This document shows, piece by piece, positions 4,035 to 59,096 of a stretch of DNA of 64,000 bases. Below the pieces are notes generated by a model. The model worked only from the letters and a program-made list of their open reading frames with translations, had not been told where the DNA came from and did no database searches. This DNA comes from a virus (taxonomy: Duplodnaviria > Heunggongvirae > Uroviricota > Caudoviricetes). A program made the translations under genes and the position numbers. The stretch lies in IMG/VR virus record IMGVR_UViG_3300013288_000004, positions 127,360-191,359 of that record; one strand, written 5' to 3'. The first letter of the stretch is position 1. Every line of letters starts with the position of its first letter.

Positions 4035-4054
4035 GTACTATTACATATAAGTAA

Positions 4055-41212: not shown

Positions 41213-41521
41213 ATGAGCAAAAAATCAATGAAATTTATTTTAATAATGTTATTAATGATCTTATCTAGTTGTCGCTCATCAGTGGAGATAGACTTTACAA
41301 AAGAGGTTATCGCATGCACAAACATATACGATTTACAAGATGACATTATATATTATGAAGAAAACAAAAGTTCTTTTGAATCAATGAGCACTGGTGTTAT
41401 ACAATATACATATGTGGATGTATATCAAAATCGTAGAATGCTTAATGAATATGAATTAGAAAATTATGAGTGTACGCAAGTAACAAGTGCGGAAGAATAT
41501 AATAAAATAGTGAACGATTAA
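41213..41521 (+). CDS. lipoprotein
   Basis: 102 aa; signal + lipobox MILSSC. Confidence 0.5.
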   Translation: MSKKSMKFILIMLLMILSSCRSSVEIDFTKEVIACTNIYDLQDDIIYYEENKSSFESMSTGVIQYTYVDVYQNRRMLNEYELENYECTQVTSAEEYNKIVND

Positions 41522-43230
41522 TGTTATTAAATTTTTCAAATGGTATAGTCCAAAGGCAACCCGTAACTCCTTTCCTAATCAAGAATGGAACTAGCATATC
41601 ACTTAATAGTGCGACAGCACCTTTAATACTATCTTTCTCTCACGGATCATCAAATTATCTAACTATACACCCTGACATAATAAAGAGTGCATGGAAGGGT
41701 CCATTCAACAAAAATAAAGACGCATATTTATATGTAGATATTAATATTAATACAGCAAAGATAACATATGGCTCTACACCACTACCTCCTAAAGCTGGAG
41801 GAAAACTTCCTATCCATGCAGAAATAGATCAGAATTTCTTCGAATTCAAATCTAGAAAAATGTACATTAAACGTGCTGGGGTGAATTCGTGGAAAGAAGT
41901 AATAAGAGTATTTGTTGGTGAATATAGAAAAGGAGCTATTTTAAAGTGTTACGACATTGGATCTAATTTTAACTTAGCAACCAAAAACAATTCCGGTTTA
42001 ATCCTATTTGATGAAAATAGACATCCAATTAAAAAAGACAATAGCAATGAGTTTCTAACCACCGAAAGTGAACTGACAGTTGAAAATGGGTATATTGGAA
42101 AAATAGATCAACATCTGAACATCACTAAATGTTTAGAGGCTATTCCAAAACATCATTGTGTGTCAATTGATACAAAGAATTACAAATATTGTAAATTGGC
42201 AAAAAATGGACTAGCGTGCACCGGAATCAACCAAAACGGGCATGCTTCCGGTGATGTTGTAAATTATGTCAAATATGGTTATCTATATGACGTTTTAGGC
42301 TGGGGGTTTTCGGGTTCACCGGGTTCTCCTTTATATCTAGGAGAACAAGCGAATATAAGCGAATCACCATCTAGGTATATCATACAAAGAGTAGGATTCA
42401 TAATAGACGAATTCACAATTTTTGTTGATATTAGCGATCCTATAAAAACAATGTTTGATTTTCAAATGTCACCAAGCGTTACTCCCACATCTACCAATAT
42501 TTCAGCTACAGTGACACCTACAGTGACACCATCTGTAACACCTACAGTGACACCTACAGTGACACCATCTGTAACACCTACAGTGACACCATCGGCTTCA
42601 CCATCTGTGACAGCCACAGTGACACCATCGGCTTCACCATCTGTGACAGCCACAGTGACACCATCGGCTTCACCATCTGTGACAGCCACAGTGACACCAT
42701 CGGCTTCACCATCTGTGACAGCCACAGTGACACCATCGGCTTCACCATCTGTGACAGCCACAGTGACACTATCGATTTCACCGACAATTACTCCTACGGT
42801 CACACCTTCGCCAATACCATCAGAATCAATTGTAGAAGTAATTGTTTTTTACTCTTTTGGAACACTAATTAATATGATAGTTTTAGATGATCCTTGTTCA
42901 TACACACCTCGTGAAGATTTAGGATACGCTAATATAACTAGTGGTACTGTATATACATATACCGGTAACAATGGTTGTGATTTTAATTATTACAACGATT
43001 GTGGGGTTATAGTAGATGTGGATAATGGTACAGAAGTATTGTCTAATACATACCCAATTACACCGATGTCAATACCATTTTCTGGCGCATTGCCAGAATT
43101 TGATACAAGTAACATTCCAATCGGAGCACAAAGCGAAATTGAATTTTCAGGTGGTTGTATAGCTATATTAAATATAGAGACCGGTATTGGGAATTTCATA
43201 TGGAAAATAGTATACAGTTCATGCTCATGA
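41521..43230 (+). CDS. large surface/adhesin-like protein with Thr/Val/Pro/Ser tandem-repeat linker
   Basis: 569 aa; central (TVTPSASPSVTA)n encoded by perfect 36-nt tandem repeats, flanked by globular N- and C-terminal domains. Confidence 0.6.
   Translation: MLLNFSNGIVQRQPVTPFLIKNGTSISLNSATAPLILSFSHGSSNYLTIHPDIIKSAWKGPFNKNKDAYLYVDININTAKITYGSTPLPPKAGGKLPIHAEIDQNFFEFKSRKMYIKRAGVNSWKEVIRVFVGEYRKGAILKCYDIGSNFNLATKNNSGLILFDENRHPIKKDNSNEFLTTESELTVENGYIGKIDQHLNITKCLEAIPKHHCVSIDTKNYKYCKLAKNGLACTGINQNGHASGDVVNYVKYGYLYDVLGWGFSGSPGSPLYLGEQANISESPSRYIIQRVGFIIDEFTIFVDISDPIKTMFDFQMSPSVTPTSTNISATVTPTVTPSVTPTVTPTVTPSVTPTVTPSASPSVTATVTPSASPSVTATVTPSASPSVTATVTPSASPSVTATVTPSASPSVTATVTLSISPTITPTVTPSPIPSESIVEVIVFYSFGTLINMIVLDDPCSYTPREDLGYANITSGTVYTYTGNNGCDFNYYNDCGVIVDVDNGTEVLSNTYPITPMSIPFSGALPEFDTSNIPIGAQSEIEFSGGCIAILNIETGIGNFIWKIVYSSCS
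42584..42765 (+). repeat. 36-nt perfect tandem repeat x5 (coding, TVTPSASPSVTA units)
   Basis: Direct inspection. Confidence 0.85.
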
Positions 43231-44342: not shown

Positions 44343-44368
44343 AAAAGGGCCAATTTGGCCCTTTTTCT
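44343..44368. terminator. bidirectional rho-independent terminator
   Basis: AAAAAGGGCCAA-TT-TGGCCCTTTTT between convergent genes. Confidence 0.6.
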
Positions 44369-45611
44369 ATTCATAATTTCTAAGTAGAAACTTGTTGCAT
44401 GTTTTTGGAAAACAAGTATCATTATCCTCTGTTAAGAACCAAAACCATTTTTCTGGAATCTTTGGGGTAACTGTTGTTCCCAAACCATCAGTAATAATAA
44501 AAACACCTTCTGGATAAGAATCAAAATCTTTCAGAACTGATTCTTCAATAATTCTAAAACAAGTACCACCTCCCATTGGCAACCTATTTTTATTCAAATC
44601 TATTTCGTGCACATAAGTTGAAAAACAAAAAAACCTAACATCAAATTTATCCAGCGGGACACTTTTTGCGGCATCGTAGAAACGTTGGGCGTAACTATGG
44701 CAAGACCCGGAAGTATCTAGATAAAATGCTATACTAATTCTTTCTTTCTTCTTTTTATCCATATCCGCTATTGTTGGTAAAAAGAAATTACTATCCAATG
44801 TTACAAATCTTCTATTCTTTCTAGCCCACTGATAGTATTCATTTTCCGTAACCTTTAATTTAGATTTCACCCATTTATGTATAACAGTTTCCCACTTCTT
44901 CTTTTTAACTACTTTCTTATTTTCTAACTCCTTTACAACAAATACATAAGCAGACCCTGCTTGTTTTTTGTTAGAATTGTTTACGGAATCTAAAGCCTCT
45001 TTTAGTTGCTCTAATTCTGATTCATCCATCCCGTCGATCATTTCTTGAATTACTTTATCTGATACAATAAACCAGTCGGAATGATCGTCAAGCATATTAC
45101 CGCCAGAACGTCCTTGCGGTCCATTCCCTTGTTCATCTGTTTCAGCATCTTTTACTAACAAATTATAATAATATTCCATAGTCATTCCATATGGTACATT
45201 TTTGTCAGGAAAAGCATTATCAAGCCACCAACCTCCGATATCCAATTCTTCCTTGATAAATTTATAAAATCTAACAAGAGTTTCGTTCACACATATATCA
45301 GCAGCTATATTCATCAATTCTTTGTTGAATTCTGGTAAACTTAGCATTCCATATAATCTTGGTAGATGCGAGAGCATCACATGCATACATTCATGGCTAA
45401 TCAAGAATAATTTTTGCAATTTATTCATCTGACTCCAAAAAGTTGGATTAATTGTCAATAAAATGTGTTCCCGAGATTCATCCGTTGCAGACACTCCAAG
45501 TGTTGGTACACTATCACTAAATTGTACGTAGCTCATGTTAAGGAATGTATAGTACATATTCCCATATGGTTGTAGACCGCGTAATAATTCTAATTTCTCT
45601 TCCAATTCCAT
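44367..45611 (-). CDS. VWA-domain protein with N-terminal HExxH metallopeptidase-like motif (CobT-like / DUF2201-like partner of the AAA ATPase)
   Basis: 414 aa; HECMHVMLSH zincin-like motif; C-terminal AFYLDTSGSC (VWA MIDAS DxSxS) ... ITDGLGT. Confidence 0.65.
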   Translation of the reverse strand: MELEEKLELLRGLQPYGNMYYTFLNMSYVQFSDSVPTLGVSATDESREHILLTINPTFWSQMNKLQKLFLISHECMHVMLSHLPRLYGMLSLPEFNKELMNIAADICVNETLVRFYKFIKEELDIGGWWLDNAFPDKNVPYGMTMEYYYNLLVKDAETDEQGNGPQGRSGGNMLDDHSDWFIVSDKVIQEMIDGMDESELEQLKEALDSVNNSNKKQAGSAYVFVVKELENKKVVKKKKWETVIHKWVKSKLKVTENEYYQWARKNRRFVTLDSNFFLPTIADMDKKKKERISIAFYLDTSGSCHSYAQRFYDAAKSVPLDKFDVRFFCFSTYVHEIDLNKNRLPMGGGTCFRIIEESVLKDFDSYPEGVFIITDGLGTTVTPKIPEKWFWFLTEDNDTCFPKTCNKFLLRNYE

Positions 45612-45672: not shown

Positions 45673-48303
45673 ATGGCTACAATAGAAGATAAATTAAAAT
45701 TTGCTGCGAAGAATGAACTAAATGTCATGCTGATCGGGCATGCTGGAGTTGGAAAAACTTCAATAGTTAAAAACATATTCGAAGAACTTGGATTAAAGTA
45801 TCTGTACTACTCAGCTTCTACCATGGACCCATGGGTAGATTTTGTTGGAGTCCCGCACGAAGTAACTGGAGAAGACGGTGTAAAATATCTCGACCTAGTT
45901 CGTCCTAAAGCATTCGCATATGATGATGTTGAAGCTATCTTTTTGGATGAATATAATAGATGCATCAGTGGTGATACCAAAATTCTGTTAGCCGATGGTA
46001 CATCAGAAGCTGTTAAGGATTTAGTCGGTAGAGAACATTTTTATGTGTATTCTTTTGACACCAAAAACAAAAGTATAGAAATTGCAAAAGCACATTCTGC
46101 TAGAATTACCGTCAGAAACGAAAACTTACTAAAAATAACATTAGATAATGGCGCATCATTCAAATGTACAAAAGATCACCCTATATTAAGAATAACTGGA
46201 GAATTTGACTTAGCTGAGAATTTTTCAGTCAACGATTCTCTAATGCCGTGCTATCGTTTCTGGAAACAAACCGGATATGAATATATAATGCAACCACAAG
46301 GAAAGAAATGGGAATTAACGTATCTTTTGGCTGATTTATACAACTTAAGAAATAATATTTATAAAATTGATGATGGTGAGCATCGTCATCATGTAGATTT
46401 TGACAAACATAATAATTCACCAGAAAATATATTGAGATTAACAGAATCTGCGCACATGTCTCTCCATGCCAATCATGATGAGAAATCTATTATGGGTGGT
46501 AGAATGGCGCATAAAATTCACCCGGACTTGTATGCAAGGACAATAGGCACCGAGGAAAGTAGGAAAAAAATGAAAGAACGGTCGGCATTGGTAAGAAAAA
46601 CTTGTCCAAAATATAAAGCGAAGCGCTCTATCGCAAGCAAAAAAATGTATACTCAAGAGATGAGGGATTATCGTGCGGAAGTAACCAAAAAACAATGGCA
46701 AACTGAACAATTTAAGAATATAGACAGAAAGGCTTCCTTAGAAAGAAATCATCTATCTAGAGTATTAAACTTTCTCACGGATAATAATATAAACATCGGC
46801 GAATTGACCGAAGAAAACTATAAAAATGCTTACTTGGAAAGAAGTAGAAATAAAAGACGACTGCCAATGAAACATTCTACCATAATAACAAAATTTTCAG
46901 ATTTTGAAAATTTCAAAAAAATACTATTGGAATTTCAATCAGCTAAAAAAAATGGTAATCATAAAATAATAAAAATCGAAGAAGTTGATGCTGAAGATAC
47001 TTACGATATTACGGTTGATGAATTTGAGAATTTTGCCCTAGAGTGTGGAATTTTTGTTCATAATTCACCAATCAAGGTAAGGAACGCTGTTATGGAATTG
47101 ATACAATTCAAATCCATCAATGGTAAAAAATTCAATAATCTAAAACTGGTTTGGGCCGCAATAAATCCTAGTGATGAGGATGATACAGGAAAAACATATG
47201 ATGTTGAAGCTCTTGACCCGGCACAATTAGATCGTTTCCATTTTCACATTGAAATGCCTTATGCTTTAAATAAAAAATATTTCAAATCAAAATACCCAGA
47301 GTATGTAGATGCTGTTCTTGAATGGTGGAATGCTCTACCAAAACCACAAAAGAATTTAGTATCTCCTAGACGTGTTGACATGGCTTTAAGCGTTCTCAGA
47401 AATGGCGGTGATCTAAATTGGATATTACCAAATAATGTAAACTGTAAAGAATTGGTAGACATTCTAGATAATGGAACATTTTCCGCTAGAGTGGGCAATT
47501 GTTTTGAAGAAAAGAATGAAGAAAAAACTAAGAATTTATTGACTGACAATGACAAAACTCTTAGCAAATACATGAAGTGTATATTCCAAAAGAATGAATA
47601 TATTGAATATTTCATGCCATTCATCACTGATGAACAAATGATGAGCATGATAACCAACAACAATAAACCCGTCATAGATTATGTGTCACGAGCAGATATT
47701 GCCGTAACTCGTGAAAAATTGTTAAGTAGCATAGTAAAAGCTAAATCAGTGAAAAAGGATTTGTTGGACAAATTCAACAATGTATTAAAAGTCATTAGAC
47801 AATCAAAACAAAAAATAGATGTTACGTCTAATGTTGCGCATTTACCCTCCGAATCTTTGTGTATAGGTAAAAATGAAAATAGTCATATTGATTTAGAATC
47901 AAATCGTGACTGGCTAGATTTTTATCATAGGATTACATCAACTAGATATGTTCCAAATACATACGACAGGAAAAAAGTCTTTTTGGCGCTTACTGATATG
48001 GGTGGTGCTATCTATGATTATAAAATGCCAGAAAAAACAGAATTAATCGGTAATATATTTGATTGTGCTGTTTCTATAATAAAAAGTACTTATAATATTG
48101 TGCATGGCAAAGAAAACTTAATATATTTAATTAAAATTATGAATTCGTGTGATGTAATTTTATCAGAACACAATATAGATATATTCGCCTTAATGAAAAA
48201 GAAAACAGATAGAATAGACAAAGCGTTAAAAGTAATAGAACAAGAACAATCGTGCTATGATATGTTAAATTCAAAATTCAAGGACTATCATGATAATTTA
48301 TAA
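45673..48303 (+). CDS. MoxR/CobS-like AAA+ ATPase (AAA_5) interrupted by an HNH-containing intein
   Basis: 876 aa; Walker A LIGHAGVGKTS, Walker B IFLDEYNR immediately followed by Cys (intein start CISGDTKILLADG); extein resumes ...VHN|SPIKVRNA; sensor region AQLDRF. Confidence 0.8.
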   Translation: MATIEDKLKFAAKNELNVMLIGHAGVGKTSIVKNIFEELGLKYLYYSASTMDPWVDFVGVPHEVTGEDGVKYLDLVRPKAFAYDDVEAIFLDEYNRCISGDTKILLADGTSEAVKDLVGREHFYVYSFDTKNKSIEIAKAHSARITVRNENLLKITLDNGASFKCTKDHPILRITGEFDLAENFSVNDSLMPCYRFWKQTGYEYIMQPQGKKWELTYLLADLYNLRNNIYKIDDGEHRHHVDFDKHNNSPENILRLTESAHMSLHANHDEKSIMGGRMAHKIHPDLYARTIGTEESRKKMKERSALVRKTCPKYKAKRSIASKKMYTQEMRDYRAEVTKKQWQTEQFKNIDRKASLERNHLSRVLNFLTDNNINIGELTEENYKNAYLERSRNKRRLPMKHSTIITKFSDFENFKKILLEFQSAKKNGNHKIIKIEEVDAEDTYDITVDEFENFALECGIFVHNSPIKVRNAVMELIQFKSINGKKFNNLKLVWAAINPSDEDDTGKTYDVEALDPAQLDRFHFHIEMPYALNKKYFKSKYPEYVDAVLEWWNALPKPQKNLVSPRRVDMALSVLRNGGDLNWILPNNVNCKELVDILDNGTFSARVGNCFEEKNEEKTKNLLTDNDKTLSKYMKCIFQKNEYIEYFMPFITDEQMMSMITNNNKPVIDYVSRADIAVTREKLLSSIVKAKSVKKDLLDKFNNVLKVIRQSKQKIDVTSNVAHLPSESLCIGKNENSHIDLESNRDWLDFYHRITSTRYVPNTYDRKKVFLALTDMGGAIYDYKMPEKTELIGNIFDCAVSIIKSTYNIVHGKENLIYLIKIMNSCDVILSEHNIDIFALMKKKTDRIDKALKVIEQEQSCYDMLNSKFKDYHDNL
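45961..47064 (+). other. intein (368 aa) with HNH homing-endonuclease domain
   Basis: N-terminal Cys + block A ISGDTKILLADG; internal HRHHVDFDKHNNSPENILRLTESAHMSLH (HNH); C-terminal block G FVHN followed by Ser. Confidence 0.75.
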
Positions 48304-48754
48304 GAAGCTAGATGTAACATATGTAGAAAAAGGAATAATTGCACACGGTGTAAACGGACAATTTGTTATGGGCAGCGGGGTTGCATTAGCTATAAGAAAC
48401 AAATGGCCGATTGTTTATGATGAATACATGAAATTCAGACATTCAAACTATACGGGTGGATTATTGGGACAAGTAGCATTCGCAACTATCAACCAAAATC
48501 TGATAGTTGCGAATTGTTTTACACAGATGTATTATGGCAACACGGTAAACGTGAGGTATGCCAGTCCTTTAGCTATAGAAACATCTCTAAATCGATGTGT
48601 AAGCGAATGCAACTCTAGGGGGCTTGATCTGTATATGCCACGCATAGGGTGCGGTCTGGGCGGTTTGAGTTGGTCAGATGACGTATTACCGATAGTAGAT
48701 AAAGTCTCTCAAAAATTGAATGATGAATTAATTATAACTGTTTGTGATTTATAA
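48290..48754 (+). CDS. macro-domain (ADP-ribose binding/processing) protein
   Basis: 154 aa; AHGVNGQFVMGSGVALAIRNKWP and MPRIGCGLGGLSW resemble macro-domain phosphate-binding loops. Confidence 0.5.
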   Translation: MIIYKKLDVTYVEKGIIAHGVNGQFVMGSGVALAIRNKWPIVYDEYMKFRHSNYTGGLLGQVAFATINQNLIVANCFTQMYYGNTVNVRYASPLAIETSLNRCVSECNSRGLDLYMPRIGCGLGGLSWSDDVLPIVDKVSQKLNDELIITVCDL

Positions 48755-48789
48755 ACTTGATAAATAGTACGATTGAAGAAAAAATATAA

Positions 48790-49326
48790 ATGAATAAATC
48801 GGTATCAGATTTTGACAAAGATGTCTATAATAAAATCAGAAATAATATAGATCATTTTCTTAGTGGACAAGCTAAAACCCACAATAATGGATCTTTACAA
48901 TTATTGGACATTGCCCCGCAAATTCATGCTGGCGCAAAAAAATATTTCACCAAGTGTGATATAGACACTGCTGACATAGATCCAAAATCTAATGCTAACT
49001 ACATAGTGGACATATGTGAAAATAACTCCCACATTATCTCCAATAATGTATTTGATATAATCGTATGCACTGAAGTATTAGAGCATACTCTGAATCCATT
49101 CTCTGCTGTTTCCGAATTACATAGAATGCTTAAAATAGGTGGAAGACTTTTATTATCAACTCCGTTTGACTTCAGAATACATGGCCCTCTACCAGATTGC
49201 TGGAGGTTCACCGAGCATGGATTGCGTGCTTTGTTAAAAGATTTCAAATCTGTGGAAATTACACCACTAGAAAATGAAAATAGATTCTTGATGCCATATC
49301 ACTATACTACGGTAGCAATAAAGTGA
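48790..49326 (+). CDS. class I SAM-dependent methyltransferase
   Basis: 178 aa; LLDIAP (motif I), DIDP (acidic loop), IIVCTEVLEH, LKIGGRLLLS. Confidence 0.7.
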   Translation: MNKSVSDFDKDVYNKIRNNIDHFLSGQAKTHNNGSLQLLDIAPQIHAGAKKYFTKCDIDTADIDPKSNANYIVDICENNSHIISNNVFDIIVCTEVLEHTLNPFSAVSELHRMLKIGGRLLLSTPFDFRIHGPLPDCWRFTEHGLRALLKDFKSVEITPLENENRFLMPYHYTTVAIK

Positions 49327-50585
49327 AGAATGTATTGGTTTTTCCCTGCGGTTCTGAAATAGGACTGGAAATAAATCGTGCTTTGAAATATTCCAAACAT
49401 TTTAAAGTGTTTGGAGCATCAAGCGTAAATGATCATGGTAAATTCGAATTTGATAATTATGCAGATGGTGTTCCTAACGTTTCCGATGATAATTTCATTG
49501 ATCATATCAATTATCTAGTAAAACAATATAACATAGACTTTATATTTCCTGCTCATGACTCCGTAGTGGTTAAAATGATAGAAGAACAACATCGTTTATC
49601 TGCAACAGTCATAACCTCTGATAAAGAAACATCACAAATATGCAGGTCAAAATCAAGAACATATGATGTTTTTAAGGGATTATTACCAGTACCAAAAACA
49701 TATGATGTTGATGGTGGAATACGATTTCCTACTTTCTTAAAACCGGATGTAGGACAAGGTGCTAAAGGTACATACAAAGTAGCTAACTACAAAGATATAA
49801 AATTTTACGTAGAAAAAGACCCATCATTATTAATTCTAGAATATCTACCCGGAAGAGAATACACGGTTGATTGTTTTACTAATCGACACGGACAATTGAT
49901 ATTCTCTGAAGGTAGGGAACGCGGCAGAATAAACAACGGTATTAGTGTAAATTCCAAGAAAACTATAAATCATAAATTCACAGAACTGGCAGAAATAATA
50001 AATTCGAGATTAAAATTTCGTGGGGCATGGTTTTACCAACTGAAAGAACGGTCTGATGGAGAATTGGTTCTAATGGAAATTTCTCCAAGAATAGCCGGAA
50101 CAATGGAACTATTCAGAAACTATGGAATAAATTTTGCGCAATTAAGTTTGTTTGATAGAATGGGAATTGACGTGTCCATAATCAACAACAATATAGATTT
50201 AGAAATAGACAGGTCATTATCCGCCAAGTATAAAATGACTTATGAATATAACCACGTGTATATTGATTTAGATGATACTATCTTAATAAATGATAAAATA
50301 AATTCAAACGTCATGAAATTTCTATATGAGTGTATTAACAATCATAAGAAGATTCATTTATTGACAAAACATAGGCATGACGTGGAACATACATTATGTA
50401 ATAATTATATTGACATCAATATGTTCACTACTATTAACCAAATAAGTCAATTCGACCATAAACCCGATTTTATAATTCATAAAGATTCGATTTTTATAGA
50501 CGATTCTTTTGCGGAAAGAAAGAGAGTGTCAGATAATGTGGGGATTCCCGTATTTGACGTTGATGCTATTGACTGCTTGATGTAA
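49323..50585 (+). CDS. ATP-grasp enzyme fused to C-terminal HAD-like phosphatase domain
   Basis: 420 aa; ATP-grasp blocks FLKPDVGQGAKG, EYLPGREYTVDCF, LMEISPRIAG; C-terminal YIDLDDTIL (HAD motif I DxDxT) and HLLTKHRHD. Confidence 0.6.
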   Translation: MKNVLVFPCGSEIGLEINRALKYSKHFKVFGASSVNDHGKFEFDNYADGVPNVSDDNFIDHINYLVKQYNIDFIFPAHDSVVVKMIEEQHRLSATVITSDKETSQICRSKSRTYDVFKGLLPVPKTYDVDGGIRFPTFLKPDVGQGAKGTYKVANYKDIKFYVEKDPSLLILEYLPGREYTVDCFTNRHGQLIFSEGRERGRINNGISVNSKKTINHKFTELAEIINSRLKFRGAWFYQLKERSDGELVLMEISPRIAGTMELFRNYGINFAQLSLFDRMGIDVSIINNNIDLEIDRSLSAKYKMTYEYNHVYIDLDDTILINDKINSNVMKFLYECINNHKKIHLLTKHRHDVEHTLCNNYIDINMFTTINQISQFDHKPDFIIHKDSIFIDDSFAERKRVSDNVGIPVFDVDAIDCLM

Positions 50586-50680
50586 TTAATATTTTAACTA
50601 ACTGTCTCTGGGTTGTGGGATTCCCCTATATCACCATCCGGGGACGCTCCCAGCAGCGTTAAAATACCTAAGAGAAACAG

Positions 50681-52666
50681 TTAGTTAAAATGCCATGGTC
50701 TAGTTTGTAATCCGCAAACATTATCAAATGCCGCCCCAACATCAATTTGTATTATATCTCTTTCGTGATAATCGTGTATAAATTTCTTAGATACGAATGC
50801 ACATGCGTATAGTACCACACATTTGTCCACAATACTATCTTCCAACTGTTTAGCTAAATCATCATATTGATACACAACTGCACATCTGTCTTTAAAGCCA
50901 TTATTCTTTGTAATCAAAGTATTTTTTTTCAGCTTTAATTCATTATCAGTTATTATGTGTTTAAAATTTATATATTTTTTAAGATTAGCAAGATAATCTG
51001 GACCAACTATGATAACATTCTTATCTTTCAATAACTCCAACATTTCGAACAATACTCCGGTTATCTGCCATCTCGCAAACAACCCACCGTCAAAAATTTG
51101 TAGATCTTTTATATAATCGTAAATATGTTTCACCATTACTTCCGATTTTAAAACTTCATTACTAATACCAACATAATACGGGATAGTTTTTACAACAGGG
51201 GTGATATTTTTATCCACAAAATCTTCAGTGTTTTTATCCCATTTAACTTTATGTACATTATATAGATTTTTATCTGGAATCTTTAGCATGCACACCCATT
51301 CACCATCATTATATCTGGACAATGACATTTTTTGATTATTTTTTATATTATCAAAAATGAATTTTTTTATATTATCATTTTGTATATCTACATTATCATG
51401 AGTTATTAATGGATATTTCTTATTTTTTATTTTATAGATTGTATCTTCAGTAAAATACTTCGGAGCAAATTTTCTATACATTAAAAAAGATTCATGATAT
51501 CTGACATTTTCTATATAATCAAATATTCGCCCTTGTTGATTTTCATATGATAATATGTTACTGGAATAATTTTGAATGTTCTCAGACATTGATGATAATA
51601 AATCTCTATTATTATATAAACTAGATATAGCCTTTATCATGGCTTTTGTGTCTGATTTCTCAACAATAAAAAGCATATCATTCGTGTATTTCGCGTGTTT
51701 GTTTGCATTATGCACATCTGTGGTTATTAGAACTACACCTTGAAGAATTGCTTCGCATCCCAATGGCCAACCATTATATGCCGAACCATTTTCCAAATTT
51801 ACTATAACATCAACATTATCGTGATAAAACTGGTCCAACTCTTTAATTGGCATCGGGTTATAGTTAGTAATATGCGGAGAAGGTAGACAATTACCTATTG
51901 ATATAAATTTTATATCATGATTAGGATACATAGATTTATATTTGTCCACCATGACCTTGTAAACAGGAGCACCTTTCTGTGTCGATACTCCCATGTTACT
52001 AAAACATACCGTCAAAGTTCCATCATTTTTTAATTTTTTCTTTATAACATGGTTCTTTGGTAATAGCGTTCCACCGAAGACATCAATATAGTTAATATGT
52101 TTATATGCTTTAAGCCATTCAGTAGTATTATTATTTGTTGATATAACTTTTGTATCTTTGTGAATCTTGGATATCGCGTTTTTACCAGACAAACCTCCAC
52201 CGGGATACAGGTGTATGAATTGATTAGATTTTGAATATTTAAAACTGGTATTGAATCGTTCATACATAGACAAAAAAATATGATACACCGTCTTATAATT
52301 TTGTACATCAAATTTAATATCTCTAGTAAATAAGTAGGAAAAACCATTAACACAGTTGAATTTGGTACCGTCAATTCTAGAATTATATTTGTTTAGGTGG
52401 TTAAACCTTTTATCGAAGATTATTACATTGTATTCTTGTAAATTATAATACTCTTTCATTTCTTCATAATCGATATCATATTTTATATCAGCATACGAGT
52501 CAATTTTATAAACTAAAAAGTCAGCATTAAATTTATCTATAAAAGCTTTACTCTCTTCGATTCTCCACTTTGCATATTTGTTAGGAAAAACTATATCAGT
52601 TACTAGAATCATACGATTCAATCGCCTCACATATAGTCCAAAACTGTTGCTCAGTAATATCTTCAT
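50681..52666 (-). CDS. large multi-domain glycosyltransferase-like protein
   Basis: 661 aa; C-terminal ...IDVGAAFDNVCGLQTRPWHF block paralogous to the C-terminus of 53600-54355; overlaps the downstream gene by 70 nt (start may be later). Confidence 0.45.
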   Translation of the reverse strand: MKILLSNSFGLYVRRLNRMILVTDIVFPNKYAKWRIEESKAFIDKFNADFLVYKIDSYADIKYDIDYEEMKEYYNLQEYNVIIFDKRFNHLNKYNSRIDGTKFNCVNGFSYLFTRDIKFDVQNYKTVYHIFLSMYERFNTSFKYSKSNQFIHLYPGGGLSGKNAISKIHKDTKVISTNNNTTEWLKAYKHINYIDVFGGTLLPKNHVIKKKLKNDGTLTVCFSNMGVSTQKGAPVYKVMVDKYKSMYPNHDIKFISIGNCLPSPHITNYNPMPIKELDQFYHDNVDVIVNLENGSAYNGWPLGCEAILQGVVLITTDVHNANKHAKYTNDMLFIVEKSDTKAMIKAISSLYNNRDLLSSMSENIQNYSSNILSYENQQGRIFDYIENVRYHESFLMYRKFAPKYFTEDTIYKIKNKKYPLITHDNVDIQNDNIKKFIFDNIKNNQKMSLSRYNDGEWVCMLKIPDKNLYNVHKVKWDKNTEDFVDKNITPVVKTIPYYVGISNEVLKSEVMVKHIYDYIKDLQIFDGGLFARWQITGVLFEMLELLKDKNVIIVGPDYLANLKKYINFKHIITDNELKLKKNTLITKNNGFKDRCAVVYQYDDLAKQLEDSIVDKCVVLYACAFVSKKFIHDYHERDIIQIDVGAAFDNVCGLQTRPWHFN

Positions 52667-53615
52667 GTAAAGAAAAATTGATTATTCTTTTATACAAATT
52701 CATAGAATTAGCAAAACCGACTAATGGCTTATAATACTTATTAGCCTCTATTCCTCTATCTCTAAAATATTTAATATCAGCGGGTTTATCGAAAATTATC
52801 GGTAAGTTTCCATAAAATACACCAGCCGAATAATTAAACAGTTTATAACCACTTTTACCAATTAATCTATCAATAAATGTATCTTGGATCGCCAAATGTT
52901 TTTCTATGCTATACGAATCCATATGTTGCAAAATAAATGCTGCCGCAACATCTGACATTTTAAAATTGGATGAAAGCACTTTGTAATCTCTGGCATCATT
53001 AAAACCAAATCCAAGTAACCTTTGTACTTCGTCATATAATTTGCTATCCAACACCAAAAAACCACCTTCTCCAAATCCTAGAGTCTTTGTATGATGTAAT
53101 GAACTAAAGGAAACATCACCCATTAGTGATATATTTTTTCCGTTTTTATCTTTACTCATAAAAGATGATGCATTGTCATATATTGTTAAACCAAAATCAT
53201 TCTTATATGGAATAACTGTTCCAAAAAGATTTGTTATTATAACACCATCATATTTGTTAGCGTAATACTCATCGATAGTAAATGTTGAACTATCTATATC
53301 ATAAATGTCAGTATTAGACTTATTGACAGAGCATGAAGGGAATGTAAAAGCTGGGCTTGCCCATTTCCTAGCGCTTCCACATATAGCATCATAATAAAAC
53401 ATAAAAGCATGTAATGCTGTAGTTCCATTAGAAGCGCATAACACTTTTTTACCATCTGGTAAGTTTATCATTTCTGATAATCTATCTTCTAATATCCTTT
53501 TTACTGGTCCATTATTTGTATAATGATTCGCATTTTTGGATATTTCTAGATATTTCTGTACAGAGTCATAATTTATTTTCTTTCTTTGTATATAATTTAT
53601 CATTTGATTACGCAA
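52596..53615 (-). CDS. DegT/DnrJ/EryC1/StrS-family PLP-dependent sugar aminotransferase
   Basis: 339 aa; ASNGTTALH ... DVSFSSLHHTKTLGFGEGG (PLP-lysine region) ... typical family architecture. Confidence 0.8.
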   Translation of the reverse strand: MRNQMINYIQRKKINYDSVQKYLEISKNANHYTNNGPVKRILEDRLSEMINLPDGKKVLCASNGTTALHAFMFYYDAICGSARKWASPAFTFPSCSVNKSNTDIYDIDSSTFTIDEYYANKYDGVIITNLFGTVIPYKNDFGLTIYDNASSFMSKDKNGKNISLMGDVSFSSLHHTKTLGFGEGGFLVLDSKLYDEVQRLLGFGFNDARDYKVLSSNFKMSDVAAAFILQHMDSYSIEKHLAIQDTFIDRLIGKSGYKLFNYSAGVFYGNLPIIFDKPADIKYFRDRGIEANKYYKPLVGFANSMNLYKRIINFSLHEDITEQQFWTICEAIESYDSSN

Positions 53616-54355
53616 TATTCCTGTATGTTGCCATCTTTAAACCATGGGCGTGATTGAATACCGGCCCATGCGTCGAGTGTTGCACCGAAATCTATAGCTA
53701 TTTTATTCTGTTTCTTTAAAATTACACCGAGGTCTTTAGCCGTTATACTAACGCCATATAGAACAACATTTTCTTTTATGTCACGAGTCTTATTTATTAA
53801 CTTTTCTCTATCATTGTCAATTAATGTCACAGACACATTGGTTTGTAAAATGTTAGACAATTTATCAATATCCAAGGATTTATTTGGAGTTATTATATTA
53901 ATAGGTTCACCGCAGATTATATGTTTAAAATTATTAGGGTCTCCAAATAATTTGGATCTAGGTAATTTGTGATCACAACATACGGGTTCCGGTACGTTCA
54001 ATTTATTTAATTTTGAAATAGGAAGCGACCAAATATGTTTATAAAATTTTCTATTAATGTTTTCAACATTATTAAAATCCATTATGCCTAAAATATCAGT
54101 TTCTCGTATGGTTGTCAGCAATTGTTCTACATATTTTTGTCGCATTTTTGGATATTCTGAGACATGATATCCCCACAGATTAGCTATTCTTTGTTTTAAC
54201 GAATCTGGCGCATTATCATTTAGAATGTAAATTTCACCGTCTCCCATCCTAGATAAACAGAATGGAGTTTGATTTTTTATGCATAATTTTATACGTTCAG
54301 CAACTTGCTCGTTAGAAAGAGTAGCTTCAAGATATTTGACGGAATGGGCAGGCAT
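53600..54355 (-). CDS. putative glycosyltransferase-like protein
   Basis: 251 aa; shares C-terminal FGATLDAWAGIQSRPWF block with 50681-52666. Confidence 0.45.
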   Translation of the reverse strand: MPAHSVKYLEATLSNEQVAERIKLCIKNQTPFCLSRMGDGEIYILNDNAPDSLKQRIANLWGYHVSEYPKMRQKYVEQLLTTIRETDILGIMDFNNVENINRKFYKHIWSLPISKLNKLNVPEPVCCDHKLPRSKLFGDPNNFKHIICGEPINIITPNKSLDIDKLSNILQTNVSVTLIDNDREKLINKTRDIKENVVLYGVSITAKDLGVILKKQNKIAIDFGATLDAWAGIQSRPWFKDGNIQEYCVIK

Positions 54356-55103
54356 TAAATAGTTGTCTCAAATCAATATTAAAATCATAATCTTCGAAAC
54401 TATTTATGATATCATTTATTGTAGTATCATTTTCAACTCTAAAAGATTTACAATGCTCTCTGTTAACTGACGAATAATAATCTTGGAATTTGAAACCACC
54501 TCCAAGAACTTTATCTGAAAATTCCACCCATTTTGATTTTATACCATAAGCATCCGCTGCTATAATTCCGTGTAATGAACTAGAAGCTATCATATCGCAA
54601 GACAAAATCTGATCGACCACTTTGTCTATTCCAGACAATATGTCTATTTTCAGTACATCATTCGATGTATTTGTTTTAAACCATTCGTTCGTAGAATCTA
54701 TATAATGTGGTATAATACCTAATTTATATTTCTTCTTTATGTCAGGTTTGTAATATCTTGGATATAATAATGCCGGGTCGCCATAAACTTCAGGACAATC
54801 AATTCCTTGACTTAATATTATATTTCTTGTCAGCTTTCCTCTTACAGCACAAATTTGTTTAGGTGTGATTGACAATTTTCGCGAATTTGAAAGAAAGCCT
54901 GCGCCCCATATTATAGAACCTGCATCGGCTCTTTGTAAAATACTACCAATACAAATATACTTTTCTAAAGTATTGCCATGATTTATCCAAACTACTTTCT
55001 TCCTTGAAATTTTCTCTATTAACGTTTTATTGAGCAAATCGCCCCAATTGTTCCTATCAAATCCGTTGACAGGATTATACCAAAATGCATTTATTGTTGT
55101 CAT
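54327..55103 (-). CDS. polysaccharide pyruvyl transferase family protein
   Basis: 258 aa; N-terminal NNWGDLL and SSLHGIIAADAYGIKSKWV blocks match PS_pyruv_trans (CsaB/WcaK) motifs. Confidence 0.6.
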   Translation of the reverse strand: MTTINAFWYNPVNGFDRNNWGDLLNKTLIEKISRKKVVWINHGNTLEKYICIGSILQRADAGSIIWGAGFLSNSRKLSITPKQICAVRGKLTRNIILSQGIDCPEVYGDPALLYPRYYKPDIKKKYKLGIIPHYIDSTNEWFKTNTSNDVLKIDILSGIDKVVDQILSCDMIASSSLHGIIAADAYGIKSKWVEFSDKVLGGGFKFQDYYSSVNREHCKSFRVENDTTINDIINSFEDYDFNIDLRQLFNACPFRQIS

Positions 55104-55958
55104 TTACATTACCAAGATAGAACCAATAGCAGAATTACACAAATCATCAAAATAATATGACATGTCTCTTTCCAACATTCTTATGGCGGAATTTGCTTCT
55201 TCCTCATCTTTAAGATATATCGCCCCTTTTCCATATTTTAATGATTTTGGAGCATCGTTAAAGGTGATTTTCCCAGTTACTAGATATTGAGCAAATAATT
55301 CATTCATAAGTTCAAAATAATCTCTAACATTGCGATCTCTGGCCGATTTAAAAGTACATAATTGTTGCCCTATTTGTTTTAATAATAATTGTTTATCTCG
55401 TGATTTTGGGGCGTAATCATGTGGATAATGTCCTCGACCCCGTTCAAATTCTTCTTCTCTACCATAACACGCTAATATATCATTAAAACCACTAATTAGT
55501 GCACTTCCAGCTTCTTTAAAAGCTGGGAATTGAGATCCACCTCTATAATTTCTATCCGGTCTGGCCAATGCATGGGATAATCTATGGCAAATGATCCAAG
55601 GGGTCATTGATACACCTTGTGTGCCCTTATTATTAGTAAAAATGATATTAATTGCGTCGTCATCTAGACGTTTTTCTATATGATCTGCAACTTCTTGATC
55701 TAAATTTTTCCTAAGCCAGTTCATATCGACTTTTCCGACTTCGGTATGAGCATTACCTTTAGGTGAGTTCAAAAAATATAAATTCAAATTGTGATCAGTT
55801 TTTCCTAATTTTTTCTTTACATTCTCTATAGCCTTCGGTGAAGATACCATCAACCTATCTCTATTTCTAAAAGAAGAATTTTTGGAAAAATTACCAAATG
55901 TTTGGTAATCAGTAACAGGAGCCTCTGATAAAAATTGTATAAATGATTTTCTTTTCAT
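55104..55958 (-). CDS. hypothetical protein in glycan cluster
   Basis: 284-aa ORF. Confidence 0.45.
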   Translation of the reverse strand: MKRKSFIQFLSEAPVTDYQTFGNFSKNSSFRNRDRLMVSSPKAIENVKKKLGKTDHNLNLYFLNSPKGNAHTEVGKVDMNWLRKNLDQEVADHIEKRLDDDAINIIFTNNKGTQGVSMTPWIICHRLSHALARPDRNYRGGSQFPAFKEAGSALISGFNDILACYGREEEFERGRGHYPHDYAPKSRDKQLLLKQIGQQLCTFKSARDRNVRDYFELMNELFAQYLVTGKITFNDAPKSLKYGKGAIYLKDEEEANSAIRMLERDMSYYFDDLCNSAIGSILVM

Positions 55959-55994
55959 GAATAATATTTATCGAAATAAATATTTCTAAATCAA

Positions 55995-56453
55995 TTAAAC
56001 AGTAGTCCTGACTATTTTTTCGAAAGAATATATCAATCTAAAATCGTGGGGAGCGGATTCCGCATATGACACATTAGATCTGTTGAATAATAACTTACAA
56101 TTAGTTATATAAGAAACTGCAACCGGTTCACCACTCGATAAATATGTAATAATAAAATTACATTGTTTCAATTTATCCAATAATTTTATAATTTTATTAG
56201 TAACTTCATCTTCCAATACAACAGTAAACAAATTGTTATTTTGTAGAAAACTTTCTTGAATAAATGCTTCGATAACCTGTGAAGCAAATATTTTCTTTTC
56301 ATCAGGTGAAAATGACTGACTATCCACATCTAATCTGAAATTATGTTTACATTTTGGGTGTATAAAACCACCAAAGATTCGTCTCTCTTCATTTTCTTTT
56401 TTAGATGATGTTTCGTACATTTCTTTTAATGTTGTATCGATTATGTGTGCCAT
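55995..56453 (-). CDS. hypothetical protein
   Basis: 152-aa ORF; first gene of the minus-strand cluster. Confidence 0.4.
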   Translation of the reverse strand: MAHIIDTTLKEMYETSSKKENEERRIFGGFIHPKCKHNFRLDVDSQSFSPDEKKIFASQVIEAFIQESFLQNNNLFTVVLEDEVTNKIIKLLDKLKQCNFIITYLSSGEPVAVSYITNCKLLFNRSNVSYAESAPHDFRLIYSFEKIVRTTV

Positions 56454-56538
56454 ATATTTTCCAAATTTACTTGTTATTTATGGTTGACAACCTCTGTGTT
56501 TTTTCTATAATTAGCAATCTATCATTGGATAAAAGTTA

Positions 56539-57045
56539 ATGAAAGCAAAAGATATGAAATTTAATGAACAGTGGAGCGTGGCGATTGATCTCGATGGAAC
56601 CTTGGCAGCGTTTCAAGAGAAGGTTGAAGAAATTAACAATTTAGAATTCCATAAAATTCCTAAAGGAAAAATGTGGCAATCCATATCACATTATGATAAG
56701 ACGGTGGAACCATTCTTCGAATCGTTAGAACTATTACCAGATGCGATGCAACTTTTTAATTTCGTGAAGAATAATTTTATTAATTATTATATCTTAACTG
56801 CCTGCGGTAACACTCCACGAAATGCTGCCGAACAGAAAAGAAATTGGTGTAAAAAACATTTTGGTAACATTGTCGTTAAAACTGTTCAAAGTAGTGAACA
56901 AAAAGCACAATACGCAACGCCAAATTCTATCTTAATTGATGATAGAAATCAGTCTATTGCGCCATGGGTTGCGGCTGGTGGTATCGGTGTGCTACACACC
57001 AGCGCTAGTGATAGTATTGCAAAAATAAAACAAATTATTGGTTAG
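56539..57045 (+). CDS. HAD-superfamily 5'(3')-deoxyribonucleotidase-like protein
   Basis: 168 aa; IDLDGTLA (motif I), ILTAC, ILIDDR (motif IV). Confidence 0.65.
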   Translation: MKAKDMKFNEQWSVAIDLDGTLAAFQEKVEEINNLEFHKIPKGKMWQSISHYDKTVEPFFESLELLPDAMQLFNFVKNNFINYYILTACGNTPRNAAEQKRNWCKKHFGNIVVKTVQSSEQKAQYATPNSILIDDRNQSIAPWVAAGGIGVLHTSASDSIAKIKQIIG

Positions 57046-57590: not shown

Positions 57591-59096
57591 TTATTCCATT
57601 TCTATCGGTGAACCATCTTCCATAAGCATCGATGACCCACTCTCCATTAGAATATGTATTATTGGTGACACAGAAGGCGTGACCGATGGAGTTACAGAGA
57701 TTGTTGGTGTCGCCGTTGGAGTCACCGTGACCGTTAAAGTAGGTGTTACGGATGGTGTTGGGGTAACATCGTCTTCCATGAGCATAGGTGAATCGTCTTC
57801 CATGAGCATAGGTGAATCGTCTTCCATGAGCATCATTGGAAGAGTATATGAAGATGATGGTGTAACTGTTGGTGTGACGGTGATCGATGGTGTAACTGTT
57901 GGTGTGACGGTGATCGATGGTGTAACCGATATAGTAGGTGTTGGTGTAACAGGTACAGTATTAACTGTTATATTTAATACTTCACCAATGTTCATGTGAA
58001 TATTATATGGTTTAGGAATAGTACATTCTTCAAACCCATCAAACCCAGCGCCGAATCTATACCCGTATAGACGTATTTCACCATTTCCGGATACTGGAGT
58101 AGATATACTCTCAGCGAATGTTAATGTTGTAGCATCTGTTTCTGCATTATAAGAATGATTACTTATCTTATATTCGGTAACTTCTGTTGTATCAGGATTA
58201 TAATACCACACTCGTCTTGGAGCTATTAATCCTGTACGCAACTGTACTGACCCGTGCACAGTTTCTGTAACATGATTGAATATATTATTATTTCGTATAG
58301 TTACAATTGTATCAGTACCATTATATGAAACAGTTTTTACCTGATAAACGCCATTATTTTTGTTTGGACTCTTAACTTCGATATAACCGGAGACTATAGT
58401 AGTATCAACAGTTTCACTTACAATGATCTCTGTTCTATTTGTTGCTGGAATGTACCGTACCAGTGTTACAGCATATACACCGTTGTTATAACGGCTTCCA
58501 GACACCCTAAAATCCATCTTGCTTTGTATCTCGGATACTTTATTTCCGGAAACAAAAAAACTATTAGAAGTATTGGCAACAATGTCGAAAGTAAAGAATG
58601 GTACTACTAGAAATAATTTATGTGTATTAAATGTGGATTCGTGATTTCCCTTTAATACTATAGTATCGCTTGTCGGTATGTTGTGAATTTGAATTCGTTG
58701 GTCATACGTAAAATCACCTGATGTATATTCACCGGCCAATTCCACCGTATCAGCATCTTCATCTATGGAAACTATGGGAGCAGTGACCAATAAGTCAGAG
58801 TTATCAAATATTAATCCATATCCACCAATACATTCAAATAGATCACAACATTCAACAGCATCAAACCCACATTCTTCGTCCCATATAAGACCAAAACCTA
58901 CTGGACCACAAAGGGCTAGATTCTTTTTTATTATATCTATATCATAATTTTCAGATATTCCGACAGAAATATATTCATTTATTCTATATTTTTCTATCAC
59001 TTCCAAAAGCTTAGTATGATACGGTTTTACTTCCAAAAAGTATCGTATCAAAGCATCTATAGGTCTTGATATGCCGGGTCTTAATTCACAAGTCAT
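57591..59096 (-). CDS. putative virion structural protein with C-terminal tandem repeats
   Basis: 501 aa; C-terminal (TVTPx) and (MLMEDDSP)x3 repeats encoded by 24-nt and 30-nt tandem DNA repeats. Confidence 0.5.
   Translation of the reverse strand: MTCELRPGISRPIDALIRYFLEVKPYHTKLLEVIEKYRINEYISVGISENYDIDIIKKNLALCGPVGFGLIWDEECGFDAVECCDLFECIGGYGLIFDNSDLLVTAPIVSIDEDADTVELAGEYTSGDFTYDQRIQIHNIPTSDTIVLKGNHESTFNTHKLFLVVPFFTFDIVANTSNSFFVSGNKVSEIQSKMDFRVSGSRYNNGVYAVTLVRYIPATNRTEIIVSETVDTTIVSGYIEVKSPNKNNGVYQVKTVSYNGTDTIVTIRNNNIFNHVTETVHGSVQLRTGLIAPRRVWYYNPDTTEVTEYKISNHSYNAETDATTLTFAESISTPVSGNGEIRLYGYRFGAGFDGFEECTIPKPYNIHMNIGEVLNITVNTVPVTPTPTISVTPSITVTPTVTPSITVTPTVTPSSSYTLPMMLMEDDSPMLMEDDSPMLMEDDVTPTPSVTPTLTVTVTPTATPTISVTPSVTPSVSPIIHILMESGSSMLMEDGSPIEME
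57769..57833 (-). repeat. 24-nt tandem repeat (coding, MLMEDDSP units)
   Basis: Direct inspection. Confidence 0.8.

Follow-up and report, generated by a model that had tools for sequence, protein, structure and literature searches.

A mosaic glycosylation island in a XacN1-like jumbo phage and its proposed role in decorating the virion

We analysed a 64,000-nt stretch of tailed-phage DNA (positions 127,360 to 191,359 of IMGVR_UViG_3300013288_000004; hereafter the window), in which an initial annotation had described nine genes as one complete pathway that makes and transfers a modified amino sugar. We found that this region is a mosaic and not a single nine-gene pathway. The best explanation, which taken as a whole we give an even chance of being right, is that a glycosylation island has been inserted into the backbone of a XacN1-like jumbo myovirus. 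Under this explanation, with the same even chance, the island would encode a cytoplasmic system that decorates virion proteins rich in Thr and Pro with a viosamine-type sugar, N-acylated and methylated, and with a pyruvylated oligosaccharide. Support for the chemistry is good; the target is inferred.

Analysis of the open reading frames (ORFs) confirmed the coordinates and strands of the nine genes and of the nucleotidase gene that follows them (Table 1). The phage origin assumed in the initial annotation was upheld. Host contamination was rejected because at least four independent metagenome assemblies (bioreactor sludge and others) show exactly this arrangement and because the flanks are phage genes with orthologues in XacN1; the GC content of the cluster region is 0.29-0.33, against 0.32-0.37 across most of the window. 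The same protein as the large glycosyltransferase of the island was found in the database on contigs up to 307 kb. The closest cultured relatives are the Xanthomonas/Stenotrophomonas jumbo myoviruses XacN1, Xoo-sp13, CM1 and RAS14. GenBank phages gave no match to the whole region in a DNA search, nor to the 661-aa protein of the island and the N-domain of a neighbouring 569-aa protein in tblastn, and pattern scans of IMG/VR with single proteins gave no relatives. Hidden Markov model (HMM) searches bore out nearly all of the initial domain calls: Macro, methyltransferase, ATP-grasp, DegT, pyruvyl transferase and 5'(3')-deoxyribonucleotidase (NT5C) all have Pfam matches, with agreement from PHROGs and NCBIfam. 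These results support a glycan-building cluster around the aminotransferase dependent on pyridoxal phosphate (PLP), the glycosyltransferases and the pyruvyl transferase.

The aminotransferase, which is 335 aa long when counted from ATG, belongs to the DegT family (PF01041, 1.4e-16, 61.1 bits versus a cutoff of 19.8). In a search of the PDB, its residues 3-331 matched Mimivirus L136 (7mfo) at E 3e-39 with 33% identity, the next match following at 1e-7, and the aminotransferases of all six phage lineages match L136 at 1e-39 to 1e-45 with about 33% identity. The active-site motif SLHHTKTLGFGEGG contains the PLP lysine and aligns to SFHHTKPFGFGEGG of L136. This Schiff-base lysine, the criterion that separates transaminases from ColD-type dehydratases, is present in the phage enzyme. 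L136 reportedly converts UDP- or dTDP-4-keto-6-deoxyglucose (uridine or deoxythymidine diphosphate sugars) to viosamine, which is then N-acetylated by the N-terminal domain of L142 (PMC9614988). The sugar made by the phages is thus probably a 4-amino-4,6-dideoxyhexose, which would be N-acetylated in distant relatives and acylated by the ATP-grasp enzyme in the window phage. The RmlA/RmlB context of the bacterial module described below also points to a 4-amino-4,6-dideoxyhexose.

The large glycosyltransferase was initially read as a 661-aa multi-domain protein. Its domain character stood, as a GT-B/GT-D fusion, but its length did not: an identical database protein and 17 of 17 aligned homologues start at Met19, where the ORF most likely begins, giving 643 aa. 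In the AlphaFold model (pLDDT, the model's own confidence score, 89), an N-terminal GT-B domain of the GT4-like type spans residues ~1-385 and a C-terminal GT-D domain residues ~400-643. In Foldseek, the best match in the PDB is 3oy2, a glycosyltransferase of chlorella virus NY2A, with GT4 enzymes next. A homologue 41% identical to the GT-B domain lies on a giant-virus-like 720-kb contig with eIF, ubiquitin and E2 genes. The C-terminal third is paralogous to the 251-aa protein of the island (BLASTP 4e-7), so the C-terminal block that the two were initially said to share reflects true paralogy; it was assigned to GT-D only through this paralogy and through a homologue bearing PF22882 (P0013). 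The 251-aa protein itself matches PF22882 GT-D-like (2.7e-11, 43.6 bits versus a cutoff of 27) and stays under the cutoff of NCBIfam GT-D_rel (31.3 versus 75). It has the R..D-G-E (DxE) metal-binding motif, in which D39-G40-E41 is invariant in 11 family members, and its profile is marginally similar to 4PHR (DUF1792; E 0.095) in the motif region only.

The pyruvyl transferase matches PF04230 (2.6e-13, 50.9 bits versus a cutoff of 25.3), and a sequence search of the PDB found no solved relative. Its orthologues in the phage lineages L008 (90% identity), L009 (75%) and L005/L006 (39%) always lie beside a GT-D gene, and orthologues of the stand-alone GT-D enzyme are present in L005, L008 and L009.

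The methyltransferase (Pfam Methyltransf_11 and Methyltransf_23) overlaps the start of the ATP-grasp–HAD gene by 4 nt with its stop. In the latter protein, described initially as an ATP-grasp ligase fused to a HAD phosphatase, the first half was borne out by HMM and the second by motifs and model, but not by HMM. The ATP-grasp part (~residues 1-300) matches ATPgrasp_Ter (PF15632, 7e-18, 65 bits versus a cutoff of 29.1) and, below cutoff, NCBIfam PRK12767, which is like carbamoyl-phosphate synthase (CPS; 1e-29). Its nearest folds in Foldseek are the uncharacterised CPS-like 2pn1 and PylC (both 1e-17) and L-amino-acid ligases, all of them proteins that link carboxylates to amines. In the other half (~residues 310-420), D315-x-D317-D318-T319, K380 and D393-D394 are invariant in 27 homologues, and the AlphaFold model of the 420-aa protein (pLDDT 87) shows alternating strands and helices at residues 311-419, forming an alpha/beta domain. 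These motifs argue for membership of the HAD phosphatases, and the complete set of catalytic residues suggests a phosphate on one of the substrates, to be cleaved off later.

The ATP-grasp–HAD family is large (more than 5,900 homologues of ~424 aa), and the phage protein is 55-60% identical to members across Clostridiales, Alphaproteobacteria, Bacteroidia, Nitrospirae and Anaerolineae. The match in GenBank phages by tblastn was a single weak one, as was that in a single-sequence search of genome contigs, which reaches close relatives only. We surveyed gene neighbourhoods at 80 metagenome loci found by family alignment, calling ORFs and clustering the neighbours, and took counts over the 41 loci with at least 1.5 kb on each side. 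A DegT gene is adjacent to the ATP-grasp–HAD gene in 22 of the 41 and within two genes in 31, mostly directly upstream on the same strand; 14 loci have a small methyltransferase gene next to it. GT4 glycosyltransferases also recur as neighbours, as do RmlA, RmlB, Wzm/Wzt, Wzx, TagD-like and LicD-like genes. Another virus contig, L098 (GC 27%), is unrelated and encodes PolB exonuclease, dUTPase and PhoH; it has a co-directional run of DegT, Methyltransf_24, ATP-grasp–HAD (45% identity), methyltransferase (53%), GT-B homologue (44%) and GT2 genes. Because the bacterial neighbourhoods and this viral run are two independent lines, we regard the place of the ATP-grasp–HAD protein and the methyltransferase in amino-sugar chemistry, proposed in the initial annotation, as a real one, judged from gene context.

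Three layers can be told apart in the region. The first is the phage backbone. XacN1 has orthologues of ClpP, a 335-aa primase-like protein, the 501-aa Thr/Pro-rich protein, NT5C and the macro-domain protein; identities are 38-47%, and gene order and orientation are conserved. Between the NT5C and macro genes of XacN1 lie four small ORFs and no sugar genes. The macro protein (PF01661, 26.5 bits versus a cutoff of 22; phrog_335 at 2.5e-33; DarG-like at 6e-10 in NCBIfam) has the PDB relatives 5e3b, 2fg1 (BT1257) and OARD1. Its XacN1 orthologue is 43% identical and holds the same backbone position, which is also kept in the sister phages L008 and L009, both of which lack the ATP-grasp gene. NT5C (PF06941, 1.6e-8; phrog_2643, 6e-32) is 42% identical to its XacN1 orthologue. 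Since this order is kept in XacN1 without sugar genes, macro and NT5C are backbone genes at a variable spot, and neither is part of the system to which they had been assigned. A macro domain acting as partner of the sugar enzymes was rejected on the synteny with XacN1, L008 and L009; its place next to them is a positional coincidence.

The second layer is a phage sugar core, in which a DegT gene is followed by the GT-B/GT-D fusion gene in all five other jumbo-phage lineages examined, with 44-85% identity across lineages. The distant relatives, whose large glycosyltransferase shows this range of identity, lie on contigs of 66-315 kb, some of which encode T4 Gp23-like and gp15-like proteins. The stand-alone GT-D and pyruvyl transferase genes join the core in L005/L006, L008 and L009, and L007 and L010 have a 294-aa GT-D-like paralogue in place of the two.

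The third layer is a bacterial module, the methyltransferase and ATP-grasp–HAD pair, which is not present in L008 and L009. On the corresponding side of the large glycosyltransferase gene, L005/L006 and L007/L010 have a PglD-like acetyltransferase. The methyltransferase is 59-63% identical to bacterial methyltransferases that adjoin ATP-grasp–HAD genes and its partner is similarly close to bacterial proteins, but the phage DegT shares no more than 28-30% identity with the DegTs encoded near bacterial ATP-grasp–HAD genes. Judging from these identities, the pair looks like a later en-bloc acquisition from bacteria beside an older phage core.

Based on these data, the following pathway may be proposed. 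The host, or a gene elsewhere in the ~307-kb genome, would provide a nucleoside diphosphate (NDP)-4-keto-6-deoxyglucose, which the L136-type aminotransferase would convert to NDP-4-amino-4,6-dideoxyglucose, a sugar of the viosamine type. The ATP-grasp domain would then acylate the amine by activating a carboxylic acid that bears a phosphate, a step that would replace the acetylation of the distant relatives; the fused HAD domain would strip the phosphate and the methyltransferase would methylate the product. The soluble GT-B/GT-D fusion and the second GT-D enzyme would assemble a short glycan, to which the pyruvyl transferase would attach a pyruvate ketal. No membrane segment was predicted in any protein of the region, and the Pfam scan and membrane prediction found no flippase, polymerase, priming phosphoglycosyl transferase or export component in the island, so the acceptor should be soluble. 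Such a cytoplasmic acceptor would most likely be the Thr/Pro-rich linkers of phage proteins encoded nearby, and the outcome would be a virion with a charged, unusual sugar coat, like the fibrils of Mimivirus.

Among the targets offered initially (virion proteins, host surface and DNA), virion proteins appear to fit best. Two proteins with TPT linkers are encoded 5 kb and 1 kb from the island. In the 569-aa protein the linker consists of ~110 residues of (V/A)TP(T/S) repeats (77% T+S+P), and the 501-aa protein has a 30-residue stretch that is 73% T+S+P. HMM scans of these two proteins and of a 173-aa protein gave no match. Four of the five other lineages have TPT-linker genes no more than 10 kb from the core: orthologues of the 501-aa protein in L008, L009 and L010, and homologues of the 569-aa N-domain within the same distance in L008 and L009 and ~2.4-4 kb upstream of DegT in L007 and L010, with TPT-rich ORFs between. 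The XacN1 orthologue of the 501-aa protein, ORF174, has a TPT linker too, and XacN1 virions contain at least two glycoproteins positive in periodic-acid-Schiff (PAS) staining (PMC5852040). The length of the 501-aa protein varies by assembly (501 aa in the window, 511 aa in L002 at 3487-5022, and split into 398 + 96 aa in L001 at 3429-5022), a difference that may reflect either polymorphism in repeat length or misassembly of the TPT and MLMEDDSP repeats.

Several points weigh against this proposal. On the side of the chemistry, the scan of window proteins found neither a 4,6-dehydratase nor a nucleotidyltransferase. The pathway is therefore incomplete in the window, beyond which ~240 kb of the genome lie, and the initial description of it as complete does not hold. 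The HAD half alone has no Pfam HMM match, no characterised member of the ATP-grasp–HAD family was found in the literature, and hhalign comparison of its profile with the Campylobacter jejuni amidoligase Cj1438C and phosphatase Cj1435 gave probabilities of 0.1% and 0.9%. Near the core of L008 and L009 there is no acetyltransferase gene and no ATP-grasp gene, and N-acylation may therefore be an optional step. On the side of the target, XacN1 has the TPT-linker orthologue without the island, which means that the linker does not depend on the island; the island-bearing L005/L006 have no TPT-rich ORF within 10 kb; and neither TPT protein is known to be a virion component, ORF174 not being named among the XacN1 virion proteins. 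The acceptor is assigned by inference only.

The closest known counterpart of the phage island is found in the clusters of the Megavirinae (Mimivirus R132-L143 and Megavirus chilensis Mg534-Mg539). The Mimivirus fibril cluster encodes the aminotransferase L136, the N-acetyltransferase L142, the methyltransferase R132, the pyruvyl transferase L143 and several glycosyltransferases, and in Megavirus chilensis Mg537, whose closest homologues are 4PHR and 5V4A, adjoins the pyruvyl transferase Mg538 (PMC10117803). At the family level, the phage island likewise brings together a 4-aminotransferase, an N-acylating enzyme, a methyltransferase, a pyruvyl transferase and multiple glycosyltransferases in a virus-encoded cytoplasmic set that needs no membrane machinery. 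The likeness extends to the aminotransferase, which is a specific L136 homologue, and to the GT-D-type enzyme beside the pyruvyl transferase, as in Mg537/Mg538. Unlike these clusters, the island belongs to a tailed phage with a bacterial host. No R141-type 4,6-dehydratase and no R135-type GMC-oxidoreductase fibril protein was found in the window; the phage glycosyltransferases are GT-B and GT-D enzymes, whereas those of Mimivirus are reported to be of the GT2 type; and the N-acyl step would use the ATP-grasp–HAD protein in place of an acetyl-CoA transferase. An L136-like aminotransferase (33% identical) was also seen in the 735-kb huge phage L096 (LR756501.1, 288184-313170), in what would be a different sugar cluster that carries no annotation so far, where by ORF reading the neighbours look like a GMD-type 4,6-dehydratase, GT2 and GT9-type enzymes, methyltransferases and a 1,755-aa multidomain protein. 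The presence of this enzyme in a separate cluster indicates that large phages carry such pathways repeatedly.

The streptococcal GT-D enzyme is a domain of a two-domain glycosyltransferase, and its acceptor is a Ser/Thr-rich repeat protein, a serine-rich-repeat adhesin. The phage enzyme resembles it (DUF1792, 4PHR) in the Pfam GT-D-like match and the conserved DxE motif; it differs in that its fusion partner is GT-B, its acceptor is a candidate only and its similarity to 4PHR is marginal. To our knowledge, mycobacteriophage glycosylation operons contain glycosyltransferases only, with no aminotransferase, pyruvyl transferase or ATP-grasp enzyme. According to Freeman et al. 2023, as cited in PMC12619734, mycobacteriophage glycosyltransferases act in the cytoplasm on the phage's own structural proteins, as would those of the island, and the glycans sit at the C-termini of capsid and tail-tube subunits, whereas the candidates for the phage island are internal linkers. 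Virion glycosylation is proven in those phages, which are unrelated in themselves and in their hosts; for the island it is proposed.

Two rival readings give the island another target. In one, which we consider unlikely, it would remodel the host surface by altering O-antigen, capsule or glycoproteins during infection, for example to block superinfection or through a change in the sugar-nucleotide pool. The ATP-grasp–HAD and methyltransferase genes do come from bacterial polysaccharide clusters with RmlA/RmlB, Wzm/Wzt and Wzx, and the missing dehydratase implies reliance on host sugar-nucleotide pools. T4-like cyanophages, too, carry gene clusters of the lipopolysaccharide type, of unproven function. 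The island, however, has no membrane protein, flippase, polymerase, priming or export component, the closest relatives of its core are viral and not host-like (L136, the chlorella virus glycosyltransferase and the giant-virus contig), and the core is stably inherited across divergent phages whose hosts are probably different. The solubility of all island proteins that speaks against surface remodelling would suit the other reading, DNA hypermodification, in which a sugar chain is put on a hydroxymethylated or activated genome base and shields it from host nucleases. Phage GT-B enzymes resembling BshA, MshA and PglH reportedly glycosylate 5-hydroxymethylcytosine with mono- to trisaccharides, and the clusters of Pyle et al., like the island, combine soluble GT-B enzymes that have the same bacterial structural neighbours with tailoring enzymes (bioRxiv 10.1101/2023.12.21.572611). 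The GT-B domain of the island matches these same structural neighbours, and both NT5C and a dATP/dGTP pyrophosphohydrolase gene (62522-63013) are nearby. What defines those clusters, however, is a C5-methyltransferase, TET-like dioxygenase or ThyS-like enzyme encoded next door; no such gene was found among the 33 further window ORFs of at least 120 aa, and for the five other lineages the precomputed Pfam annotations likewise show none up to 10 kb from the core. The literature on DNA glycosylation that was searched is silent on aminotransferases, pyruvyl transferases and ATP-grasp enzymes. NT5C belongs to the backbone and occurs without the island too, and the closest functional relatives produce protein- or fibril-linked glycans. 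We rate this reading slightly below host-surface remodelling.

A different chemistry for the acquired module is suggested by C. jejuni, where a DegT-type enzyme, an amidoligase and a HAD phosphatase (Cj1437, Cj1438C and Cj1435) make up the sole set of this kind with biochemical proof; in the HS:2 capsule, Cj1438C carries out ATP-dependent amidation with serinol phosphate and Cj1435 is the HAD phosphatase (PMC11800397). By this scheme the product of the phage DegT would be an amino-alcohol phosphate, serinol phosphate for example, which the ATP-grasp domain would join to a glycan carboxylate as in uronic-acid amidation, and the HAD domain would dephosphorylate the product. C. jejuni forms an amide with a phosphorylated partner and then uses a HAD phosphatase, beside a DegT-type transaminase, and the phage module would follow the same logic. 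In C. jejuni, however, the carboxylate is that of polymer glucuronate and the amine is serinol phosphate or ethanolamine phosphate, whereas the phage amine is most likely an NDP-amino sugar and both activities are in one fused polypeptide. Membership of the Campylobacter amidoligase family was rejected, the hhalign values of less than 1% to both enzymes being no significant profile similarity and indicating no family-level homology, so the resemblance is an analogy. The phage DegT is of the L136 type and in relatives is paired with a PglD-like N-acetyltransferase, an enzyme that acts on amino sugars, and the bacterial loci are rich in RmlA/RmlB, which make keto-deoxy sugars; UDP-glucose dehydrogenase is not among the ten recurrent neighbour families identified. 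Amidation of this type is therefore improbable, and clearly more so than either reading above. Virion glycosylation by an N-acylated amino-sugar pathway remains our preferred explanation.

Two proteins of the island have no assigned function and are probably not pathway enzymes. The 284-aa protein has no match in Pfam, PHROG, NCBIfam or the PDB, in line with the initial observation that it lacks a recognisable motif. Its family has 114 homologues, several on contigs of 230-410 kb and none annotated, one of which (in L094) has no sugar genes nearby. The gene is present in L009 and not in L008, and its co-transcription with the island is predicted from position. The 152-aa protein has 8 matches among 1.8 billion representative proteins, all lineage-restricted, with orthologues at the same position in L008 and L009. 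No similarity was found between these two proteins and the position-equivalent 317-aa and 99-aa proteins of L005 and L007.

The minus-strand genes overlap or abut as described initially, with overlaps of 17 nt, 4 nt and 29 nt, one abutment and one 36-nt gap. The hairpin between the convergent gene sets (-30.6 kcal/mol, z = -3.4, matched by none of 200 shuffles) is a possible two-way terminator. A perfect TTGACA-16-TATAAT promoter-like site lies at 56484-56511, ahead of NT5C. Because the promoter and terminator scans yielded no more than in shuffled sequence, they were not used for operon definition.

Table 1. Features of the island and its flanks, in window coordinates.
Feature	Position	Strand	Evidence or remark
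569-aa protein, (V/A)TP(T/S)-repeat linker, second candidate acceptor	41521..43230	+	composition
Macro-domain protein	48290..48754	+	PF01661; backbone gene flanking island
Class I S-adenosylmethionine (SAM) methyltransferase, 178 aa	48790..49326	+	Pfam; first gene of putative acquired two-gene module
ATP-grasp–HAD fusion, 420 aa, GTG start	49323..50585	+	ATPgrasp_Ter; HAD motifs
Stable hairpin between convergent ATP-grasp and glycosyltransferase genes	50598..50684	.	RNA fold
Bifunctional GT-B/GT-D glycosyltransferase, 643 aa	50681..52612	-	AlphaFold, Foldseek, paralogy
PLP-dependent sugar aminotransferase (DegT), 335 aa, L136 type	52596..53603	-	Pfam, PDB search
Stand-alone GT-D-fold glycosyltransferase, 251 aa	53600..54355	-	PF22882
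Polysaccharide pyruvyl transferase, 258 aa	54327..55103	-	PF04230
Protein of 284 aa, no assigned function	55104..55958	-	no family match
Protein of 152 aa, lineage-restricted, edge of island	55995..56453	-	8 library matches
5'(3')-deoxyribonucleotidase (NT5C)	56539..57045	+	PF06941; backbone gene at other flank
501-aa Thr/Pro/Ser-rich-linker protein, candidate acceptor of the sugar	57591..59096	-	composition

Other features of the window and of related phages were noted. Just upstream of the sugar island, L005/L006 have WGR and PARP-like (ADP-ribosyltransferase) genes (4403-5685), and the macro gene beside the island in the window phage and two sister phages is of the ADP-ribose hydrolase type; that one variable spot carries a writer of ADP-ribose in some phages and an eraser in others is probably a coincidence. 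Within 10 kb of the island, L005/L006 (18564-20439) and L008 (937-1197) encode Tad3, Acb2/Tad1-hairpin and Tad2-like anti-defence signal sponges. The pyrophosphohydrolase gene mentioned above (minus strand, PF04447) is MazZ-like, and a MazG-domain protein is encoded elsewhere in the window; by family, the two may point to a non-canonical purine in the DNA. A plus-strand gene (45673-48303) encodes an 876-aa AAA ATPase split by an intein with an HNH endonuclease, which is uninterrupted in L007 and L010 (~335 aa); its partner gene, at 44367-45611, is DUF2201 metallopeptidase/VWA-like.

Farther from the island, a tmRNA gene with the tag ASNDEFFDVEYAQAA lies at 61396-61740 (minus strand), and seven tRNA genes (Asp, Lys, Gly, Phe, Gln, Ser and Cys) lie between 15122 and 34679, all on the minus strand. 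The minus strand also carries a DenV-like pyrimidine-dimer DNA glycosylase gene (911-1360; PF03013, 2.3e-7) and IS200/IS605-type transposase (TnpB-like) genes at 5710-6948 and 19619-21411, the second of which is directly downstream of a serine resolvase gene in an IS607-like pair also found in L009. A 595-aa Ala/Gly/Thr-rich tail-fibre-like protein (10809-12596, minus strand) has no family match; GC content there is 0.52, compared with 0.34 in the background, and the gene may have been picked up recently as a determinant of host range.

In conclusion, the component families of the island (DegT, GT-B, GT-D, pyruvyl transferase, ATP-grasp, HAD and macro) are ordinary. Three aspects appear undescribed in GenBank phages and in the literature searched: the jumbo-phage core of an L136-type aminotransferase and a GT-B/GT-D fusion, the giant-virus links (L136, the chlorella virus glycosyltransferase fold and the GT-B homologue on the 720-kb contig), and the swap of the N-acylation step to a bacterial ATP-grasp–HAD protein and methyltransferase. 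As a tentative joint proposal, to which we give somewhat less than an even chance, jumbo phages and giant viruses would share an exchangeable particle-coating toolkit for bacterial-type sugars (L136-type aminotransferase, GT-B family, GT-D and pyruvyl transferase), with the phage as the tailed counterpart of the Mimivirus fibril glycan, and the ~424-aa ATP-grasp–HAD proteins would be a new family of N-acyl amino-sugar ligases that use a phosphorylated acid and then dephosphorylate it.

Giant viruses and some mycobacteriophages are already established as makers of their own surface sugars. If our explanation is true, a complex pyruvylated amino-sugar glycan would extend this biology to another group of large phages, with bearing on particle stability, adsorption and recognition by the host or immune system. 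The L136 link and the GT-B homologue on the giant-virus-like contig suggest gene flow between phages and giant viruses. The study also offers a testable function for a very large bacterial ATP-grasp–HAD family, a consistent partner of DegT and a small methyltransferase, and it would make N-acylation a swappable step, an acetyltransferase for an ATP-grasp module, within a conserved viral glycan pathway.

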